From contig CAWALG010000030.1 in the NCBI GenBank assembly GCA_963782815.1, positions 164,284-228,283 on the forward strand: a stretch of 64,000 bases of DNA, read 5' to 3'. A program made the position numbers and the translations under genes. Below are positions 31,234 to 41,149 of the stretch, one piece after another. Origin of the DNA: an uncultured Acidobacteriota bacterium (GTDB lineage Bacteria; Acidobacteriota; Thermoanaerobaculia; UBA5066; Gp7-AA6). Numbering within the stretch: the first letter of the stretch is position 1; each line of letters opens with the position of its first letter. Below the pieces are notes generated by a model. The model made no database searches, was not told where the DNA came from, and was given only the letters and a program-made list of their open reading frames with translations.

Positions 31234-32322
31234 TCAGGAGGGTTTGCCGTTGGGATAAAACACGACTTTCATGGCCTGGCGGTTTTCCAGCAGGGCCATG
31301 GCCTCATGAAAGCTGTCCAGGCCTTCGAACTCGTTCGTCACGAGGTCGGCGACGTCGAGGCCCGCGGTGAGCAGATCGAGCATCTTGATCCAGGTCTCGA
31401 AGACGCGCCGCCCGATGACGGCGTGGAGCGTCAGACCCTTGAAGATCAGGTCGCTGGTGTAATCGCGGATCGTGACCGACCTTCCCTTGGGCAGGCCGAG
31501 AAGAGAGATCGTGGCGCCGCGCCTGGCGGCCGCCAGACCGAGGTTGATCGAGGACTCCGCTCCGGAGAGCTCCAGCACGACGTCGGCCCCTCCGTTCGTG
31601 GCGTCCTTCAGGCTCCCCGCCGGGTCCTTCGTTCTCGTCAGATCCAGAACCGTGACGTTGGTCAGCCCGCGGTTGCTTGCCCATCGCCGGGCGTGGGCCG
31701 CGGCGTGAGGGTTGACCTCGGTGATCGCGATGCGCGAGGCGCCGGAGACGCGCGCGATCTCCGCGCACATGGCGCCGATCGGCCCGTAGCCCAGGACCGC
31801 GATGGACTTTCCCGAGAGGTCGGCGACCTGCGTCGTGTGGACCGCGTTTCCGAGCGCGTCGAGGAACGCCCCGACCTTCGGAGGCACGATGTTCCGGTCC
31901 AGGGGAACGACGTTGAAAGCCGGCACGGCCACGTACTGCGCGAAGCAGCCGTCGCCGTGCACGCCGAGGATGCGGGTGTTCTCGCAGATGTGCCTCTGCC
32001 CCGTGCGGCAGGGGCGGCAATGGCCGCAGGTGACGTGCATCTCCGCCGAAACGTACTGGCCTTCGAAGAGGTGGGGCCGCGCGCCGCCCGGCCCGAAGGC
32101 CACGATCTCGCCGCAGAACTCGTGGCCGTAGACACGCGGCGGCTTGACCATCGAGGCCATGGAAGGGTCCCACCGGTAGATGTGCTTGTCCGAGCCGCAG
32201 ACGGCCGTCGCGAGCACTCGGATGAGCACCTCCGCCTGGCCGGGTTTCGGGACGGGCACGCTCTTGATCTCGGTCGCGTCCGGTCCAGCGGTGGCCTTCG
32301 TCTTGACGACGGCCCGCATCAT
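31234..32322 (-). CDS. tdh: L-threonine 3-dehydrogenase (Zn-dependent MDR)
   Basis: VCGSDKHIY, GHEFCG, structural Zn CGHCRPCRTGQRHIC, DALGNAVHT, GYGPIG; near kbl. Confidence 0.9.
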   Translation of the reverse strand: MMRAVVKTKATAGPDATEIKSVPVPKPGQAEVLIRVLATAVCGSDKHIYRWDPSMASMVKPPRVYGHEFCGEIVAFGPGGARPHLFEGQYVSAEMHVTCGHCRPCRTGQRHICENTRILGVHGDGCFAQYVAVPAFNVVPLDRNIVPPKVGAFLDALGNAVHTTQVADLSGKSIAVLGYGPIGAMCAEIARVSGASRIAITEVNPHAAAHARRWASNRGLTNVTVLDLTRTKDPAGSLKDATNGGADVVLELSGAESSINLGLAAARRGATISLLGLPKGRSVTIRDYTSDLIFKGLTLHAVIGRRVFETWIKMLDLLTAGLDVADLVTNEFEGLDSFHEAMALLENRQAMKVVFYPNGKPS

Positions 32323-33839: not shown

Positions 33840-33855
33840 GCGGCCCGGCGATTCT

Positions 33856-33945
33856 AATCGATTGAACGATTGATGGTTTGACGATTGAAAGATTGAGTTC
33901 GCCGGCCTTGCAATTCGTCAATCGTCAATCAGACAATCGTCAATC
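33856..33945. repeat. Inverted heptamer block (GATTGAx / TCAATCG arms) in the divergent fba-queD region
   Basis: cgattgaacgattgatggtttgacgattgaaagattga ... ttcgtcaatcgtcaatcagacaatcgtcaatc. Confidence 0.8.
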
Positions 33946-33948
33946 CCG

Positions 33949-34392
33949 ATGATCCGTCTCTCCCGCACCATCCACTTCAACGCCGGCCGGAGCCTTTGGC
34001 GGGCGGACTGGACGCCGGAGAGGAACCGGTCGGTGTACGGGGAGGAGGGGCCGCACGGCTACGGCCACAACTACGAGCTGGAGGTGGCGGTCGAAGGCGA
34101 GATCGACCCGGAGTCCTCCATGGTCATCAACCTGACGGACCTCGACCGGATCCTCAAGGAAGAGGTGGACGAGCCTCTCGATCACCGGAACCTGAACCGC
34201 GACGTTCCCGATTTCGCGGATCTTCCTCCCACGGCGGAGAACCTGGCGGCCTGGATCTGGCGGCGGGTCGGCGCGCGCATCGCGCGGGAGAGATGGTCCT
34301 GCCGGGTGGTTCACCTGCGCCTGCGCCTGACGCCCGGTTTCGCCGTCGAAATCGAAGCGGAGCGGCAGGATAGGATTCGCCCGTCGGAATGA
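33949..34392 (+). CDS. 6-pyruvoyl-tetrahydropterin synthase / QueD-like T-fold protein with degenerate active site
   Basis: GHNYELEVAVEGEIDP..MVINL, LDHRNLN, PTAENLA; FNAGRSL and EEGPHGYGHNY replace the canonical His and Cys ligands. Confidence 0.75.
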   Translation: MIRLSRTIHFNAGRSLWRADWTPERNRSVYGEEGPHGYGHNYELEVAVEGEIDPESSMVINLTDLDRILKEEVDEPLDHRNLNRDVPDFADLPPTAENLAAWIWRRVGARIARERWSCRVVHLRLRLTPGFAVEIEAERQDRIRPSE

Positions 34393-35948
34393 ACTTCGCC
34401 TTCGTCATCGACAACCGGCGATGCATCGGCTGCCACGCCTGCTCGACGGCCTGCAAGGCGGAGAACTCGGTTCCCCTCGGAGTCTCCCGCACCTGGGTCA
34501 AGTACGTCGAGAAGGGAACCTTCCCGCACACGAGGCGGTACTTCCAGGTCACGCGCTGCAACCACTGCGCGAAGCCGCCCTGCGTTCCGATCTGTCCGAC
34601 GGCGGCGATGTTCCGGCGGCCCGACGGGATCGTGGAGTTCGACTCGGACGCGTGCATCGGCTGCAAGGCGTGCCTGCAGGCCTGTCCGTACGACGCGATT
34701 CACATCGACCCCGAGTCCGGCACGGCCGCCAAGTGCCATTTCTGCGCGCACCGCACGGAGGTGGGCCTGGAGCCCGCGTGCGTCATCGTCTGTCCCGTGC
34801 ACGCGATCCTCGCGGGAGATCTCGACGACCCGGCCTCCGAGGTCGCGAGGGCCGTGTCGGTCGAGCAGGTCGCGGTCCGCAAGCCCGAGCAGGGCACGCG
34901 GCCCAAGCTCTTCTACATCGAGGCGGAGGAGTCGGCGCTCCTTCCGATGCTCGCCGCGCAGGACGGCGGCTATCTCTGGGCGGAGCAGCCCGCCGCCGGC
35001 GCCGGAGGGGTCGAGGACTGGCGCGGCCCGATCCAGATCGGAGAGGGGCGCATGGCCGGCGCGCTCATTAGCTCGGCGGCGTCGCCGAGGGAGACTTACA
35101 ACGTGCCGCACCGCGTCCCGTGGCACTGGCAGGTCCCCGCCTACCTCGTGACCAAGGCGATCGGAGCGGGGCTCCTGATGCTCGCGGCCGCGGGCACGGC
35201 GCTCGGGATTCTGCCCGCCTCGCCGCTCTTCCTGACGGTCGCCCCGGCGCTCGCGCTGTTGCTCGCCGCGGTCACGACGGGACTCCTCGTCTGGGATCTC
35301 GACCGCCCCGAGCGCTTCTGGAAGATCCTCGCCCGCCCTCAGTGGCGCTCCTGGCTGACGCGCGGCGCGGTCGTGCTCATCGCGTTCTCGGGAGGGGCGG
35401 GCCTGATGTGGTTCGCCAACCTGACTGGCCGCGCCGGCCTCGCGCGCGCCCTGGCGTGGCCCGTGGTCGCGCTCGGCGCTCTCGCGGCCGTCTACACGGC
35501 CTTTCTCTTCGCGCAGGCGGAAGGGCGGGACCTCTGGCAGAGCCCGCTCCTCTCCTCGCATCTGCTCGTGCAGTCGGTCATGGCCGGCGCCGCGGGGTTT
35601 CTCCTGATCGGTCCGTTCTCCGGTCTCGACGCGGGCGCGGCGCGCACGGTCGCCGTGATCTTTGCCGCGAGCCTCGGCATGGATCTGCTCATCACCGTCG
35701 CCGGCGAGTTCGGCCTGCCGCATGCGAGCGTCGTGGCCGCGACCGCCGCCCGCATGATCACGCGCGGACGCTATGCCCGCCACTACTGGGGGAGTCTCGC
35801 CTGCGGCATCCTCCTCCCTCTTGCGATCGTGGCGACGTCGCGGTCGTCGCCCGCCGCCCTCGCCGTCGCCGGAGCGCTCTCGCTCGCCGGTCTCTTCGCG
35901 TACGAATGGGCGTTCGTCTTCGCGCCCCAGCAGGTGCCGAACAGTTGA
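34389..35948 (+). CDS. 4x[4Fe-4S] ferredoxin (PsrB/NrfC/DmsB-like) fused to NrfD/PsrC membrane anchor
   Basis: CIGCHACSTAC, CNHCAKPPCVPICP, CIGCKACLQACP, KCHFC...PACVIVCP; then WHWQVPAYL, DLDRPERF, SWLTRG and about 8 TM helices. Confidence 0.9.
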   Translation: MNFAFVIDNRRCIGCHACSTACKAENSVPLGVSRTWVKYVEKGTFPHTRRYFQVTRCNHCAKPPCVPICPTAAMFRRPDGIVEFDSDACIGCKACLQACPYDAIHIDPESGTAAKCHFCAHRTEVGLEPACVIVCPVHAILAGDLDDPASEVARAVSVEQVAVRKPEQGTRPKLFYIEAEESALLPMLAAQDGGYLWAEQPAAGAGGVEDWRGPIQIGEGRMAGALISSAASPRETYNVPHRVPWHWQVPAYLVTKAIGAGLLMLAAAGTALGILPASPLFLTVAPALALLLAAVTTGLLVWDLDRPERFWKILARPQWRSWLTRGAVVLIAFSGGAGLMWFANLTGRAGLARALAWPVVALGALAAVYTAFLFAQAEGRDLWQSPLLSSHLLVQSVMAGAAGFLLIGPFSGLDAGAARTVAVIFAASLGMDLLITVAGEFGLPHASVVAATAARMITRGRYARHYWGSLACGILLPLAIVATSRSSPAALAVAGALSLAGLFAYEWAFVFAPQQVPNS

Positions 35949-35983
35949 GCGATCCGCGCGGCCCGGTCCGCCTTCCGCCGCAG

Positions 35984-38848
35984 ATGACCGAGTCGGGCTC
36001 GCGCCTGCAGCAGTACCCGCCCGTCGAGGCGTGGGACGACTGGGTGGAGTGGGATCCGAAAGCATGGCCGCGCCGCGTGCCGAAGCGCTACCGGCTCATC
36101 CCGACGGTCTGCTTCAACTGCGAGTCCGCCTGCGGCCTGCTCGGGTGGGTGGACAAGGAAACGATGGAGGTGCGCAAGTTCGAAGGGAACCCGGCCCATC
36201 CCGGGAGCCGCGGAAGGAACTGCGCCAAGGGACCGGCGACGTTGAACCAGGTCAACGACCCGGACCGGATTCTCTATCCGTTGAAGCGCGCCGGCCGCCG
36301 CGGCGAGGGGCGCTGGACTCGCGTCAGCTGGGCGGAGGCCCTGGCGGACATCGGCGGGCGCATTCGGAAAGCGTTCCAGGAGGGGCGGCAGAACGAGGTC
36401 ATGTATCACGTCGGCCGGCCGGGGCACGACGGCCTGATGGAGTGGATCCTCCCGGCGTGGGGCGTGGACGGCCACAACTCCCACACGAACATCTGCTCTT
36501 CCGGCGCGCGCGCCGGCTACGCCTTCTGGATGGGTTACGACCGGCCGAGCCCCGATCACGCGAAGGCCAGCGTGATTCTCCTCATCAGCAGCCACCTCGA
36601 GACAGGGCATTACTTCAACCCGCACGCGCAGCGGATCGTGGAGGGGAAGGCCGCCGGAGCGAAGCTGATCGTCTGGGATACGCGCCTCTCCAACACGGCG
36701 TCCATGGCCGACACCTGGATCTCTCCCTGGCCCGGCTCCGAGGCGGCGATCCTGCTCGCGATCGCGCGGCACCTCGTCGCGACGAAACGCTACGACCGCG
36801 ACTTCGTCCGCCGCTGGGTCAACTGGGAGGAATTCCTGAAGAGTCGGGACTCGGGACTCGGGACTCGGGACTCGAACGATGAGCGCCACTCCCACCTTTC
36901 CTACGACTCCTTCGAAGCCGCCTTCCTCGAGACCTACAAAGACTTCACCTTCGACTTCGCCGCCCGCGAATCGGGCGTCGAAGCGCGCGTGATCGAAGGC
37001 ATCGCCGAAGACGTCGCCAACTGCGGCGGTCGCCTCGCCGCGCACAACTGGAGGAGCGCCGGCTCCGGCAACCTCGGCGGCTGGCAGGTCGCGCGCTGCC
37101 TCTGGCTCTTGAACGTCCTGACGGGTTCCGTGGGCCGGGAAGGAGGCACCTCCGCCAACGGGTGGGACAAGTGGGTTCCGCGCCCGCCGCACCTGGCTCC
37201 CCACGTCCAACGCTGGAACGATCTCTCCTGGCCGCGCGAGTACCCGCTCTCCTATTTCGAGATGAGCTTCCTGCTGCCCCACTTCCTGAAGGAGGGGCGC
37301 GGCAAGCTCGACGTCTACTTCACCCGGGTCTACAACCCGATGTGGACGAACCCCGACGGGTTCACCTGGCTCGAGGTGCTTCGCGACGAATCGAAGATCG
37401 GGCTGCACGTCGCGCTGACGCCGACCTGGAGCGAGACGGCGTGGTGGGCGGACTACGTGCTGCCGATGGGTCACGGCTCGGAGCGGCACGACGTCATGAG
37501 CCAGGAGACGCACGCGGGACAGTGGATCGCCTTCCGGCAGCCGGTCCGCCGCGTCGCGCTCGAGCGCGCCGGAAAGCCCGTCGCGCGGACGTACGAGGCC
37601 AACCCCGGGCAGGTCTGGGAGGAGACGGAGTTCTGGATCGACCTCTCCTGGGAGATCGATCCGGACGGCTCGCTCGGGATCCGCCGCTACTTCGAGTCGC
37701 CGTACCGGCCGGGCGAGCGGATCACCGTGGACGACTACTTCGGATGGATGTTCGAACGCTCCGTCCCCGGCCTGCCGGAAGCGGCGGCGCGCGAAGGGTT
37801 GAAGCCGCTGGCTTACATGCGGCGATACGGCGCCTACGAGATCCGCTCCGGCGCCGAGGCGGAGTTCGAGCGAGCGCTCTCGCGCGAAGAGACTCTCGAA
37901 GCCACGAAGGACGAGGCCACCGGGGTCCTCTACACGCGGGCGGCCGCGGCGCCGGCCAAGAACATCGTGCCGAGCCCTGTCGCCCCCTCCGGCGAGCGCG
38001 GACGCCCGATCGGGGTCCTCGTGGACGGAGAGGCGCGCTTCGGATTTCGCACCCCTTCGCGGCGCCTGGAATTCTTCTCCTCGACGCTCGCGGATTTCGG
38101 CTGGCCGGAGCTGGCGATTCCGACATACATCCGGAGCCACGTCCATCCCGACAACGTGGACCGCGCGAAGAGCGAATTCGTCCTGCTCTCGACGTACCGG
38201 CTTCCGACACTCATCCACACGAGGAGCGGCAACGCGAAGTGGCTGCTCGAGATCTCCCACACGAACCCGACATGGATCCACACCTCCGACGCGCAGCGCC
38301 TGGGCGTCGCGACGGGCGATCTCGTGCGGATCGAGACGGAGATCGGGCACTTCGTGGACCGGGTCTGGGTCACGGAGGGGATCCGCCCGGGTGTCGTCGC
38401 GTGTTCGCACCACCTGGGACGGTGGCGCCTCGCGGAAGGGGAGGGGACGAGCCGGCTCGCATCTTCTCTCGTGGACGTCAGGGAGGATCGCGGGCAGTGG
38501 AAGCTCACGCAGCTTTCCGGCATCGAGCCGTACGACTCCGCCGATCCCGACACGCGGCGGATCTGGTGGACGGAGAGCGGCGTGCATCAGAACCTGACGT
38601 TTCCCGTCCAGCCCGATCCGGTCAGCGGCTGCCACTGCTGGCACCAGAAGGTCAGGATCACGCGCGCTCGGCCGGAAGACCGTTACGGCGACGTCAGCGT
38701 AGACACGAACAAGTCCCACGAGGTGTACAGGCGGTGGCTCGCGCTCGCGCGCCCGCCGCGCGGAGCCTGGCGGCGTCCCTACTGGATGCTGCGCCCCTTC
38801 CGCCCCGCCGAGAGCGCCTTCCGCCTCCCCGGGAGCGAGAACCCGTGA
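35984..38848 (+). CDS. Mo/W-bisPGD (DMSO reductase superfamily) catalytic subunit, Psr/Phs/Arr/Soe-like, no Tat signal
   Basis: CFNCESAC...CAKG Fe-S motif, SHTNICSS (probable Cys ligand), DTRLSNTA, C-terminal binding domain (HTRSGNAKWL, WIHTSDA). Confidence 0.88.
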   Translation: MTESGSRLQQYPPVEAWDDWVEWDPKAWPRRVPKRYRLIPTVCFNCESACGLLGWVDKETMEVRKFEGNPAHPGSRGRNCAKGPATLNQVNDPDRILYPLKRAGRRGEGRWTRVSWAEALADIGGRIRKAFQEGRQNEVMYHVGRPGHDGLMEWILPAWGVDGHNSHTNICSSGARAGYAFWMGYDRPSPDHAKASVILLISSHLETGHYFNPHAQRIVEGKAAGAKLIVWDTRLSNTASMADTWISPWPGSEAAILLAIARHLVATKRYDRDFVRRWVNWEEFLKSRDSGLGTRDSNDERHSHLSYDSFEAAFLETYKDFTFDFAARESGVEARVIEGIAEDVANCGGRLAAHNWRSAGSGNLGGWQVARCLWLLNVLTGSVGREGGTSANGWDKWVPRPPHLAPHVQRWNDLSWPREYPLSYFEMSFLLPHFLKEGRGKLDVYFTRVYNPMWTNPDGFTWLEVLRDESKIGLHVALTPTWSETAWWADYVLPMGHGSERHDVMSQETHAGQWIAFRQPVRRVALERAGKPVARTYEANPGQVWEETEFWIDLSWEIDPDGSLGIRRYFESPYRPGERITVDDYFGWMFERSVPGLPEAAAREGLKPLAYMRRYGAYEIRSGAEAEFERALSREETLEATKDEATGVLYTRAAAAPAKNIVPSPVAPSGERGRPIGVLVDGEARFGFRTPSRRLEFFSSTLADFGWPELAIPTYIRSHVHPDNVDRAKSEFVLLSTYRLPTLIHTRSGNAKWLLEISHTNPTWIHTSDAQRLGVATGDLVRIETEIGHFVDRVWVTEGIRPGVVACSHHLGRWRLAEGEGTSRLASSLVDVREDRGQWKLTQLSGIEPYDSADPDTRRIWWTESGVHQNLTFPVQPDPVSGCHCWHQKVRITRARPEDRYGDVSVDTNKSHEVYRRWLALARPPRGAWRRPYWMLRPFRPAESAFRLPGSENP
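36844..36874 (+). repeat. (TCGGGAC)4 heptamer repeat inside the Mo-enzyme CDS
   Basis: tcgggactcgggactcgggactcgggactcg, read in frame as SRDSGLGTRDS. Confidence 0.9.
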
Positions 38849-39756
38849 ACGCGCCTCCGCTCTCTCTCCTGTCCCGTCTCTGGCTCTCGGAGCCCGACGC
38901 GGAGACGGTGGCCCGCGCCGCCGAGGCGGGTCTTGCGGGCGGCGAGCCCTCCGACCTCGCCGCCGCGTGGACCGACCTCTTCCTCCTGAACGTGTACCCC
39001 TACGGCACCGCCTTCACGGACATCTCCGGGGAGTTGAACGGCCCGGCCGCCGCCGCCGCGTCGCGCCGGTACGAAGCCGCGGGATACCGGCCGCCGGAGC
39101 TTGCCGGAACCGGAGCGCCCGACCACGCCGGCCTCTGTCTGGGTTTTCTCGCGCACCTGGCGGCGCAAGGACGGGAAGACCCGGGGTTTCTTGCGTGGAC
39201 TCTGGACTGGCTTCCGGTCTGCGCGCTCGCCGTCGAGCGCCAACCCTTCGCGCATCCGTTCTATCGTGACCTCGCGGCGGCGACGCGGGAGAGCCTCTTC
39301 GCGATGGAGTCCCCGCCCTCCGCCGCTCCGGAGGATCTCGCGCCGGTTCTGGAGGCGGGTTCCGAGACCGAGGAAGAAGTCGGCCTCTCCCGTGTCGTGA
39401 GATTCCTGCTCGCGCCGGCGGCATCCGGCTTCTTCCTCTCCCGGTCGCGGCTGGGAGCGCTCGCGCTCGAGGCCGGTCTGCGTCTCCCGTTCGGATCGCG
39501 GTTCGACGTCGCGCGCGCTCTCTTCGAAGCCGCCGGGGAATCCGGCCGCGTCGAACCGGTCCTGGCGGCGCTCTCCCGCGAGGCGGAGGCCTGGGACACC
39601 GCCTACGCGGCGCTAGCCGGCGAACATTCTTCGTGGCAGACTCGCGCCGCCGTCTGGCGTTCCCGGATCGCGGCGACGCGCGAGCGGCTGACTGAAATGC
39701 GACAGATCCTCGACAGCCCGCTCGAACTGGAGTATGGGAGTCGGGCAGAGAGTTAA
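38845..39756 (+). CDS. TorD/DmsD-like redox enzyme maturation chaperone (extended, about 303 aa)
   Basis: TDLFLLNVYPYGTAF, PDHAGLCLGFL, WLP, PFYRDLA; GTG overlaps the Mo-enzyme stop. Confidence 0.7.
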   Translation: MNAPPLSLLSRLWLSEPDAETVARAAEAGLAGGEPSDLAAAWTDLFLLNVYPYGTAFTDISGELNGPAAAAASRRYEAAGYRPPELAGTGAPDHAGLCLGFLAHLAAQGREDPGFLAWTLDWLPVCALAVERQPFAHPFYRDLAAATRESLFAMESPPSAAPEDLAPVLEAGSETEEEVGLSRVVRFLLAPAASGFFLSRSRLGALALEAGLRLPFGSRFDVARALFEAAGESGRVEPVLAALSREAEAWDTAYAALAGEHSSWQTRAAVWRSRIAATRERLTEMRQILDSPLELEYGSRAES

Positions 39757-39769
39757 TCAGGAGCTTCCT

Positions 39770-41149
39770 ATGTACTTCAAGCAGTTCTATCTCGGGTGCC
39801 TGGCGCAGGCCTCCTACATGATCGGATCGAAGGGGGAGGCGGCCGTCGTGGACCCCAGGCGCGACGTCGAGACATACCTCGAGGAAGCCGAGCGCGAGGG
39901 GCTCACGATCCGGCACGTCATCGAGACGCACCTCCACGCGGACTTCGTGTCGGGGCACCGGGAGCTCGCGGCCAGCACCGGCGCGAAGATCTATTTCGGG
40001 GCGAAGGCCAAGGCCGGGTTCGACCACGTCCCCGTCCGCGAAGGAGACCAGATCGTCCTCGGCGACGTCGCGCTGCGTTTCCTCGAGACGCCCGGCCACA
40101 CGCCGGAGTCCCTCTCGATTCTGGTCATCGACCGGGCCAAATCGGAGGAGCCCGAGGCCGTTCTGACCGGCGACACGCTCTTCATCGGAGACGTCGGCCG
40201 GCCGGATCTCCTCGGCGCGAAGATGAGCGCGGAGGAGCTCGCCGGAATGCTCTACGACTCTCTCCACGAGAAGCTCCTGAAGCTGCCCGATTCCGTCGCC
40301 GTCTACCCGGCGCACGGAGCGGGGTCGCTCTGCGGCCGCAACATCTCGAGCGAGACCTCCTCGACGATCGGCCAGCAGCGCCGCTTCAACTACGCCCTCC
40401 AGCCGATGCCGCGGGAGGACTTCATCCGGATGATGACGACGGACCTGCCGGAGGCGCCCGCGTATTTCTCGCGCGACGTCCAGTTGAACCGCGAGGGGCC
40501 GTCGAATCTCTCGGAGCTTCCAAAACCTCCCGGACTTCTCCCCGCCGCCGTGGACGAGATGCGGCGGTCAGGAGCCGTCGTGCTCGACACGCGGCCTGCC
40601 TCGCAGTTCGGGACGGGCCATGTTCCGGGATCCCTGAACATCGGTCTCGGCGGCCAGTTCGCTTCCTGGGCCGGAGCCCTGATCCCGGCCGAGAAGCCGA
40701 TCGTCCTCGTCACCGAGGACGAGGAGCAGGTCGAAGAGGCGCGCACGCGCCTGGCGCGCGTCGGGCTGGAGAACGTGGCGGGCTACCTCGCGGGAGGTCT
40801 CCTCGCCTGGCATGAAGCGGGGCGCCCGCTCGCGGCGATGGAGCAGATCAGCGTGGACGAGCTGCGTCACCGGATCGCGCAGGGCGAGGTCGGGCAGCTC
40901 GTGGACGTGCGGCGTCCGGCGGAGTGGCAGGCCGGCCACATCGCGCAGGCCCGGAACCTGCCCTTGAACGAGCTCGCCGCCCGCGCCACGGAGCTCGACC
41001 GCGGCAAGCCCGTCACCGCCATCTGCGCCGGCGGCTACCGCTCCTCGATCGCGACGTCCGTCCTCGAGCAGCAGGGCTGCGCGCGGATCATCAACGTCGT
41101 CGGGGGAATGACCGCCTGGAACCAGGCGAAATTCGAGACGGCCGCCTGA
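39770..41149 (+). CDS. MBL-fold persulfide dioxygenase with two rhodanese domains (CstB/Blh-like architecture)
   Basis: ETHLHADFVSG, TPGHTPES, TGDTLFIGDVGRPD, YPAHGAGSLCG; C-terminal rhodanese ICAGGYRS. Confidence 0.85.
   Translation: MYFKQFYLGCLAQASYMIGSKGEAAVVDPRRDVETYLEEAEREGLTIRHVIETHLHADFVSGHRELAASTGAKIYFGAKAKAGFDHVPVREGDQIVLGDVALRFLETPGHTPESLSILVIDRAKSEEPEAVLTGDTLFIGDVGRPDLLGAKMSAEELAGMLYDSLHEKLLKLPDSVAVYPAHGAGSLCGRNISSETSSTIGQQRRFNYALQPMPREDFIRMMTTDLPEAPAYFSRDVQLNREGPSNLSELPKPPGLLPAAVDEMRRSGAVVLDTRPASQFGTGHVPGSLNIGLGGQFASWAGALIPAEKPIVLVTEDEEQVEEARTRLARVGLENVAGYLAGGLLAWHEAGRPLAAMEQISVDELRHRIAQGEVGQLVDVRRPAEWQAGHIAQARNLPLNELAARATELDRGKPVTAICAGGYRSSIATSVLEQQGCARIINVVGGMTAWNQAKFETAA

Follow-up and report, generated by a model that had tools for sequence, protein, structure and literature searches.

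In a 64,000-nt stretch of contig CAWALG010000030.1 from an uncultured Acidobacteriota bacterium (hereafter the window), five plus-strand genes follow one another almost without gaps at positions 33949-41149, and Pfam confirms every domain that they encode. Two of them form a core, namely a ferredoxin fused to an NrfD-type membrane anchor and a MopB catalytic subunit, which are followed by genes for a TorD/NarJ-family chaperone and a metallo-β-lactamase (MBL)-rhodanese-rhodanese protein. We consider it reasonably probable that the core is a SoeABC-like sulfite:quinone oxidoreductase that would drain the sulfite made by a persulfide dioxygenase (PDO), i.e., a functional analogue of SoeABC. Here we infer sulfite as the substrate, oxidation as the direction, quinone as the acceptor and a maturation role for the chaperone. 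The family is widespread and uncharacterised, and the window copy is intact and typical of it. A cytoplasm-facing molybdenum sulfite dehydrogenase coupled to persulfide oxidation is an already known kind of system, and the window alone, with its one intact and typical copy, is an ordinary result.

The MopB gene (35984-38848, plus strand) encodes a protein of 954 aa carrying the Pfam domains PF04879, PF00384 and PF01568. The protein begins with MTESGSRLQQYPPVEAWDDW, and the cysteines of its FS0 cluster start at residue 43, forming the [4Fe-4S] motif C43-x2-C46-x3-C50...C80. Cys171 aligns to the molybdenum-ligand cysteine of PsrA and is the predicted Mo ligand of a subunit with a molybdenum or tungsten bis-pyranopterin guanine dinucleotide cofactor (Mo/W-bisPGD); the next residue is Ser172, not His. 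Conservation also extends to a YPPxExWDDW segment at the N-terminus and to the tail at the C-terminus. The AlphaFold (AF2) model, computed from a 38-sequence alignment, shows a confident MopB fold (mean predicted local confidence, pLDDT, 91; predicted template-modelling score, pTM, 0.92). The top Foldseek match of this model is ArrA (6CZ7; template-modelling, TM, scores 0.66/0.77), PsrA (2VPW) reaches 0.61/0.78, and formate dehydrogenases and Nap rank below both. The best PDB matches at the sequence level are PsrA 2VPW (E 6e-33) and ArrA (E 1.3e-26). No NCBIfam equivalog cut-off was reached by the protein: the best model, PhsA, gave 175 bits versus a cut-off of 694 with a match confined to the N-terminal third, and ArrA gave 89 bits versus 1600.

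The earlier note on this DNA had held that the catalytic subunit lacks a twin-arginine translocation (Tat) leader, and this was borne out across the family. In a scan of maximal open reading frames (ORFs), an RR motif with an uncharged h-region ahead of FS0 was found in none of 85 family MopBs, the window copy included. The other in-frame starts of the window gene, at 35945 (TTG) and 35906 (ATG), add just charged residues; an upstream start with a Tat signal, such as one carrying RRxFLK, does not exist and is ruled out by these starts together with the scan. The missing leader is meaningful, because leaders (RRNLLK and RRGFFK) are present on the formate-dehydrogenase-like MopBs that the same genome encodes on contigs C10 and C16. 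These two Tat-exported enzymes (C10, ~86672-88273, minus strand; C16, ~31627-32118, plus strand) have an in-frame TGA that probably encodes selenocysteine, in agreement with a selenoprotein located elsewhere in the window.

The fusion gene (34389-35948, plus strand; Pfam Fer4_11 and NrfD) agrees with the same orientation. Its single ORF of 519 aa consists of a ferredoxin at residues ~1-200, a linker, and an NrfD/PsrC-type quinone-interacting domain of eight helices at ~250-505, so that the fusion of ferredoxin to the N-terminus of NrfD is as it had been described. The ferredoxin contains 16 cysteines in four [4Fe-4S] cluster motifs, and because the first of these lies at residue 12, there is no room for a signal peptide. 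The loops of the anchor contain on average 10.65 K+R on the ferredoxin side versus 1.57 on the opposite side, a bias present in 68 of 68 fusions, and the anchor is therefore predicted to be inverted relative to PsrC. The absence of Tat leaders throughout the family, their presence on the genome's own formate-dehydrogenase-like enzymes, and the positive-inside bias together make it a well-supported prediction that ferredoxin and catalytic subunit face the cytoplasm. A similar inversion has been proposed for the SoeC anchor (PMC8076601).

A homologue scan covering one genome per species recovered at least 592 stretches encoding the family, and MopB has thousands of close homologues. Among the best 80 of these at least 592 stretches, from which identities were taken, the catalytic subunits are 58-94% identical to that of the window and come from Acidobacteriota, Chloroflexota, Gemmatimonadota, Bacteroidota, Calditrichota, KSB1, Planctomycetota, Verrucomicrobiota, Methylomirabilota, Nitrospinota, Actinomycetes and others. 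The nearest relatives are metagenome-assembled genomes (MAGs) of Thermoanaerobaculia. Cultured carriers include Chloroflexus aurantiacus and C. aggregans, Thermomicrobium roseum (on a megaplasmid, 63% identity), Rhodococcus jostii RHA1 (on pRHL3, 60%) and several haloarchaea (~52%). The fused ferredoxin-anchor followed by the catalytic subunit, i.e., a BC-then-A order, occurs in 69 of 70 loci, and the layout that looked unusual is therefore the normal form of the family. At source the homologues are named 'molybdopterin-dependent oxidoreductase', 'formate dehydrogenase' or 'anaerobic selenocysteine-containing dehydrogenase'.

Among 1.84 billion representatives searched, members of the family collapsed into a few clusters at 50% identity, and the next full-length relatives were 35-47% identical, some of them with clear Tat leaders (P0127, P0180 and P0150). 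In a quick maximum likelihood (ML) tree, which has no named Ttr, Soe or Sre sequences among its tips, the family and its Tat-bearing relatives formed one clade (SH-aLRT 99, stem length 1.2). This clade is separate from that of the Tat-bearing Psr/Phs-like enzymes, and the formate-dehydrogenase-like protein of the genome lies far outside on a very long separate branch. The enzyme, together with its Tat-bearing relatives, thus appears to be a clade of its own near Psr/Arr. The three Tat-bearing relatives, which are predicted to be an uncharacterised periplasmic sister group, measure 915-1123 aa at 35-44% identity and have a YPPxExW motif after the signal peptide; no NCBIfam family matched them at E 1e-40. 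Another Tat-bearing relative, split across two frames, is present on the Sulfurovum mangrovi plasmid NZ_CP087125.1 (383912-387044).

The last gene of the operon (39770-41149, plus strand; Pfam Lactamase_B and two Rhodanese domains) encodes a protein that matches PDB 3TP9 over its full length from residue 1 (E 2.9e-97). It also matches, again over its full length (residues 1-446, E 3.6e-71), S. aureus 3R2U, which we take to be the CstB structure of that species; matches to BpPRF and human ETHE1 are weaker. Because both alignments begin at residue 1, the start at 39770 is supported. The ETHE1-like MBL domain has a THLHAD motif that fits the HxHxD metal motif, the C-terminal rhodanese has a CAGGYRS active-site loop with the catalytic Cys, and the middle rhodanese is without Cys, as it is in the aligned CstB. 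These features identify the gene product as a predicted CstB-type persulfide dioxygenase-sulfurtransferase, the sole copy in this 57%-complete genome.

The context of the core was compared across 86 loci, in which PDO-rhodanese genes were counted within 6-7 kb, and by an unbiased count of Pfam domains in the two ORFs closest to the core on either side (~260 neighbour ORFs) with subsequent clustering. PDO-rhodanese (MBL(-Rhod)) genes are near the core in 14 of the 86 loci, spanning five or more phyla: Thermoanaerobaculia, several Chloroflexota classes, KSB1, Rokubacteria/Methylomirabilota, a proteobacterial MAG and Rhodococcus. As the gene is upstream in some loci and downstream in others, it seems to have been recruited repeatedly. 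A TorD-like gene after the core is among the commonest non-core neighbours (13 loci). Genes for TauE/SafE sulfite exporters occur in nine loci, which is a large excess among ~260 neighbour ORFs, given that this genome has one TauE copy in 4.06 Mb. The sHdr hallmarks LbpA-type GCV_H (five loci), LplA (three) and HdrD-like proteins (three) also recur, as do SulP-STAS sulfate permeases, flavoproteins resembling flavocytochrome c sulfide dehydrogenase (FCSD) and SsuA/NMT1-like binding proteins (four each), SoxY (three), SoxZ (two) and single rhodaneses (three). On pRHL3 of R. jostii RHA1, genes for DsrE and TusA precede the core, whose surroundings include three MBL genes, ArsR regulators and a thioredoxin, and in T. 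roseum a CsoR/CstR-family regulator gene stands immediately ahead of the core. The pRHL3 island (L081, 1-20793), a sulfur-stress island, also holds genes for Mrp/NBP35, two DUF202 proteins, two ArsR/SmtB regulators and an MFS transporter, and makes a tractable cultured system for the family. The annotated carriers R. jostii and T. roseum are presumably aerobes, a way of life that fits both an O2-dependent dioxygenase partner and an oxidative role.

The recurrent neighbours thus cover sulfide oxidation, the conversion of sulfane sulfur to sulfite, and the export of sulfite and sulfate, which would leave the cytoplasmic oxidation of sulfite to sulfate for the core. In Proteobacteria this step belongs to SoeABC (PMC6397845 and PMC8076601), the route from PDO to SoeABC is an accepted pathway concept (PMC11507549), and oxidisers that use sHdr or Dsr always have soeABC (PMC6397845). 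The CstB homology, the sulfur-related neighbours and the cytoplasmic orientation therefore favour the persulfide-to-sulfite-to-quinone module that had been put forward for this operon.

In such a module, low-molecular-weight persulfides from sulfide oxidation or from the breakdown of cysteine and organosulfur compounds would be converted to sulfite by the Fe/O2-dependent CstB-like dioxygenase, whose C-terminal rhodanese may interconvert sulfite plus persulfide and thiosulfate. The Mo-bisPGD subunit, with Cys171 as ligand, would then oxidise sulfite to sulfate in the cytoplasm, and electrons would pass from FS0 along the fused ferredoxin, with its four [4Fe-4S] clusters, to a quinone in the NrfD domain at the cytoplasmic face. 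By draining sulfite, the enzyme would pull the rhodanese equilibrium off thiosulfate, so that sulfane sulfur would end as sulfate and its electrons in the respiratory chain. Maturation of the catalytic subunit, which has no Tat leader, would fall to the TorD-like protein, in the manner of NarJ and NarG. Sulfite oxidation with quinone as acceptor is a strongly exergonic reaction. Given that both sites would lie on the inner face, it would be electrogenic only if protons were moved by the anchor.

Several observations weigh against a sulfite-oxidising role. The closest characterised enzymes, PsrA, PhsA and ArrA, are all reductases. A sulfur gene lies within 6 kb of the core in just ~29 of the 86 loci (about one third), and a PDO gene is present in only the 14 mentioned above. 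S. aureus CstB reportedly releases thiosulfate rather than free sulfite. In addition, sulfite could be oxidised by SUOX-type molybdoenzymes, which this genome encodes as well.

The strongest alternative would be an inward-facing sulfane-sulfur or thiosulfate reductase, resembling SreABC of Aquifex or Psr/Phs, in which quinol would reduce polysulfide, persulfide or thiosulfate inside the cell. At the sequence and profile level the best matches are PsrA (2VPW) and the NCBIfam PhsA model, PsrA also ranks near the top by structure, and CstB-type enzymes could supply thiosulfate. However, the PhsA match is far under its cut-off and covers the N-terminal third only, quinol-driven reduction of thiosulfate is endergonic, and the family occurs in aerobes and adjoins an O2-dependent dioxygenase. 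Meanwhile, the sulfite exporters, the sulfate permeases and the sulfite-producing sHdr and PDO neighbours suggest a function at the oxidised end of the pathway. The alternative gains some support from bacterial SreA, a protein listed as cytoplasmic that groups with SoeA (PMC10100899); on the whole we regard this reading as unlikely. An identity with the periplasmic Psr/Phs reductases themselves was rejected, given the lack of a twin-arginine leader and the unreached PhsA equivalog cut-off.

A cytoplasmic reductase or oxidase of arsenate, selenite or selenate, a form of which the earlier note had offered as its alternative, is highly improbable. ArrA is the top Foldseek match, the Rhodococcus copy is flanked by ArsR-family regulators, and this genome makes selenoproteins. 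However, the clusters of recurrent neighbours in the 86 loci contain no ars or selenium-handling genes, so that gene neighbourhoods lend the idea little support; ArsR-family regulators also include persulfide sensors, and the NCBIfam ArrA score stays far below its cut-off. Least probable of all is a formate:quinone oxidoreductase, as the source names of several homologues and the tentative 'FqoABC' of PMC8076601 (a name for an NrfD-containing complex, itself uncharacterised, in Chlorobi, Chloroflexi and Actinobacteria) might imply, since the enzyme has Cys-Ser at the Mo ligand versus Sec/Cys-His in formate dehydrogenases (Sec, selenocysteine), formate dehydrogenase models and structures score under Psr, Phs and Arr, the tree sets the genome's own formate-dehydrogenase-like enzyme apart on a very long branch, the loci compared showed no formate-related neighbours, and the Fqo template CT0494 is, by its residue numbering, a stand-alone anchor rather than a fusion. 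The tree, the Mo-ligand residues and the structural ranking, with ArrA and PsrA closest, thus rule out a formate dehydrogenase identity and the placement in that clade which the earlier note had considered. An equation of 'FqoABC' (CT0494-0496) with this family was rejected as unproven, CT0494 being a stand-alone anchor.

Among known systems, the proposed sulfite:quinone oxidoreductase resembles SoeABC, the sulfite:quinone oxidoreductase of Allochromatium vinosum and Aquifex aeolicus (Dahl 2013; Boughanemi 2020; both cited by PMC8076601). Both combine a Mo-bisPGD subunit that contains FS0 with a ferredoxin of four clusters and a cofactor-free anchor of the NrfD/DmsC type; in both the A and B parts carry no export signals and are predicted to face the cytoplasm on an inverted anchor, beside sulfite-producing systems. 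In contrast to the separate soeA, soeB and soeC genes, B and C are one ORF here and precede A. In PMC8076601, SoeC-type anchors are placed in Proteobacteria, Aquificae and three Clostridia only, a narrow range compared with that of the present family, which extends over Acidobacteriota, Chloroflexota, Actinomycetota, Bacteroidota, Planctomycetota, haloarchaea and more.

No named SoeA or PSRLC3 sequence was present in NCBIfam, the PDB, plasmids, cluster names, the ESM Atlas or the homologue searches, and no Chlorobi or Allochromatium names appeared among the homologue-search results. In the search of 1.84 billion representatives, a library whose entries are unlabelled, no SoeA-like full-length representative was recognised in the best 150 matches (all at least 274 bits); SoeA may thus lie further away than the Psr/Phs-like enzymes. 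This result and the range of SoeC point indirectly away from a close kinship with SoeABC. P0122, examined as a possible SoeA/PSRLC3 reference, proved to belong to the present family as a divergent member. Among 251 genomes of the phylum to which locus L076 belongs, we found Tat-bearing Psr-like enzymes at 29-30% identity to the window MopB, and, at 21-26%, MopB genes without a Tat leader that adjoin genes for DmsC-family anchors. In the latter (L118, L121, L122, L119, L120 and L125) the anchor gene is directly upstream of MopB or, where all three genes were recovered, the order is A-B-C. They are not callable as SoeABC, and they are smaller than the complex reported from A. vinosum.

PSRLC3 of green sulfur bacteria, which consists of two genes (PMC5473276) and has been regarded as an alternative sulfite-oxidising system (PMC6338057), is alike in layout and inferred role, a comparison made by description only. 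The core here is likewise a two-gene complex without export signals, as PSRLC3 is described. The difference is that green sulfur bacteria are anaerobes that make sulfite by Dsr, not PDO.

PsrABC (Thermus thermophilus, 2VPZ/2VPW) and PhsABC, the closest sequence matches among characterised enzymes, share the fold, FS0, the Cys ligand of Mo and the eight-helix NrfD anchor. However, they are Tat-exported, periplasmic and reductive with a subunit of ~760 aa, whereas the enzyme here is Tat-less, predicted to face inward, and 954 aa long. The window MopB has extra N- and C-terminal segments, shows ~19% identity to Psr/Phs in structural alignments, and falls into a separate clade.

With the S. aureus cst operon (CstR, CstA, CstB, SQR and TauE, SQR being sulfide:quinone oxidoreductase) the window operon has the CstB-type MBL-rhodanese-rhodanese enzyme in common, and other loci of the family contain further cst-like genes, namely DsrE/TusA, a CsoR/CstR-like regulator, TauE and the SQR-related FCSD-like flavoproteins. 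The cst system exports its sulfite or thiosulfate and is not known to include a molybdoenzyme; here a quinone-linked Mo enzyme is added, and the window operon is without regulator or SQR. NarGHI with NarJ is similar in being a cytoplasm-facing complex iron-sulfur molybdoenzyme with a Tat-less catalytic subunit and a TorD/NarJ-family chaperone, and differs in the dihaem cytochrome b anchor NarI, the Asp ligand of Mo and nitrate as the substrate. The match of the window to NarH (70 bits) indicates no close sequence relation.

A plausible but tentative possibility is that the family represents an inward-facing sulfite:quinone oxidoreductase lineage of its own rather than an offshoot of proteobacterial SoeABC, and that it arose alongside Tat-exported relatives when the leader was lost and the ferredoxin became joined to an inverted NrfD anchor. 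If so, it would be the principal enzyme, as yet unlabelled, for cytoplasmic sulfite oxidation in Acidobacteriota, Chloroflexota, Actinomycetota and others from soil and sediment, and would fill a gap in surveys where PDO or sHdr is common and soeABC goes undetected. Metagenome surveys find sulfite makers (PDO, sHdr) in heterotrophs of many phyla and few direct sulfite oxidisers; in Bohai Sea sediments, for example, soeABC was not detected (PMC12345210). A two-gene enzyme encoded by at least 592 species and routinely given generic names could be the missing sulfite-oxidising step.

The remaining features of the operon concern its gene order and borders. The G+C content of the window is 66-70%. 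The first gene (33949-34392, plus strand) encodes a PTPS/QueD-family protein of 147 aa (PF01242, E 2.6e-26) that scores under the NCBIfam QueD and PTPS cut-offs and appears to be without the catalytic Cys ahead of its HGxGHNY motif; among the loci compared, the gene is retained only in the closest relative (L001). Its stop overlaps the start of the fusion gene by 4 nt (ATGA), so that the two genes are probably co-translated, and 35 nt separate the fusion gene from the MopB gene. The TorD-like gene (38845-39756, plus strand) starts with a GTG that overlaps the MopB stop (GTGA), and a gap of 13 nt follows before the MBL-rhodanese-rhodanese gene, a spacing in accordance with the earlier description. 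The encoded TorD-like protein of 303 aa has a C-terminal extension and matches PF02613 at E 2.1e-9, with 38 bits versus a gathering cut-off of 22.2.

Within the MopB gene, an in-frame insertion of the heptamer repeat (TCGGGAC)x4 at 36844-36874 (plus strand) encodes an extra loop of ~12 residues. The loop around residues 287-302 is absent from the family consensus, and the model has only two internal dips in confidence, at residues 294-298 (block-mean pLDDT 51) and at ~201-210 (66). Because the AF2 model gives the heptamer-encoded loop low confidence, it is most likely a tolerated surface insertion in an intact gene.

A scan for promoters and terminators gave no sigma-70 consensus match and nothing informative. 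The divergent intergenic region 5' of the operon (33840-33948), between an aldolase-like gene and the operon, is A+T-rich and contains palindromic repeats of the CGATTGA/TCAATCG type, which form a 30-nt imperfect palindrome with 77% complementarity. These repeats may be an operator/promoter region or array, or an element resembling repetitive extragenic palindromic (REP) sequences.

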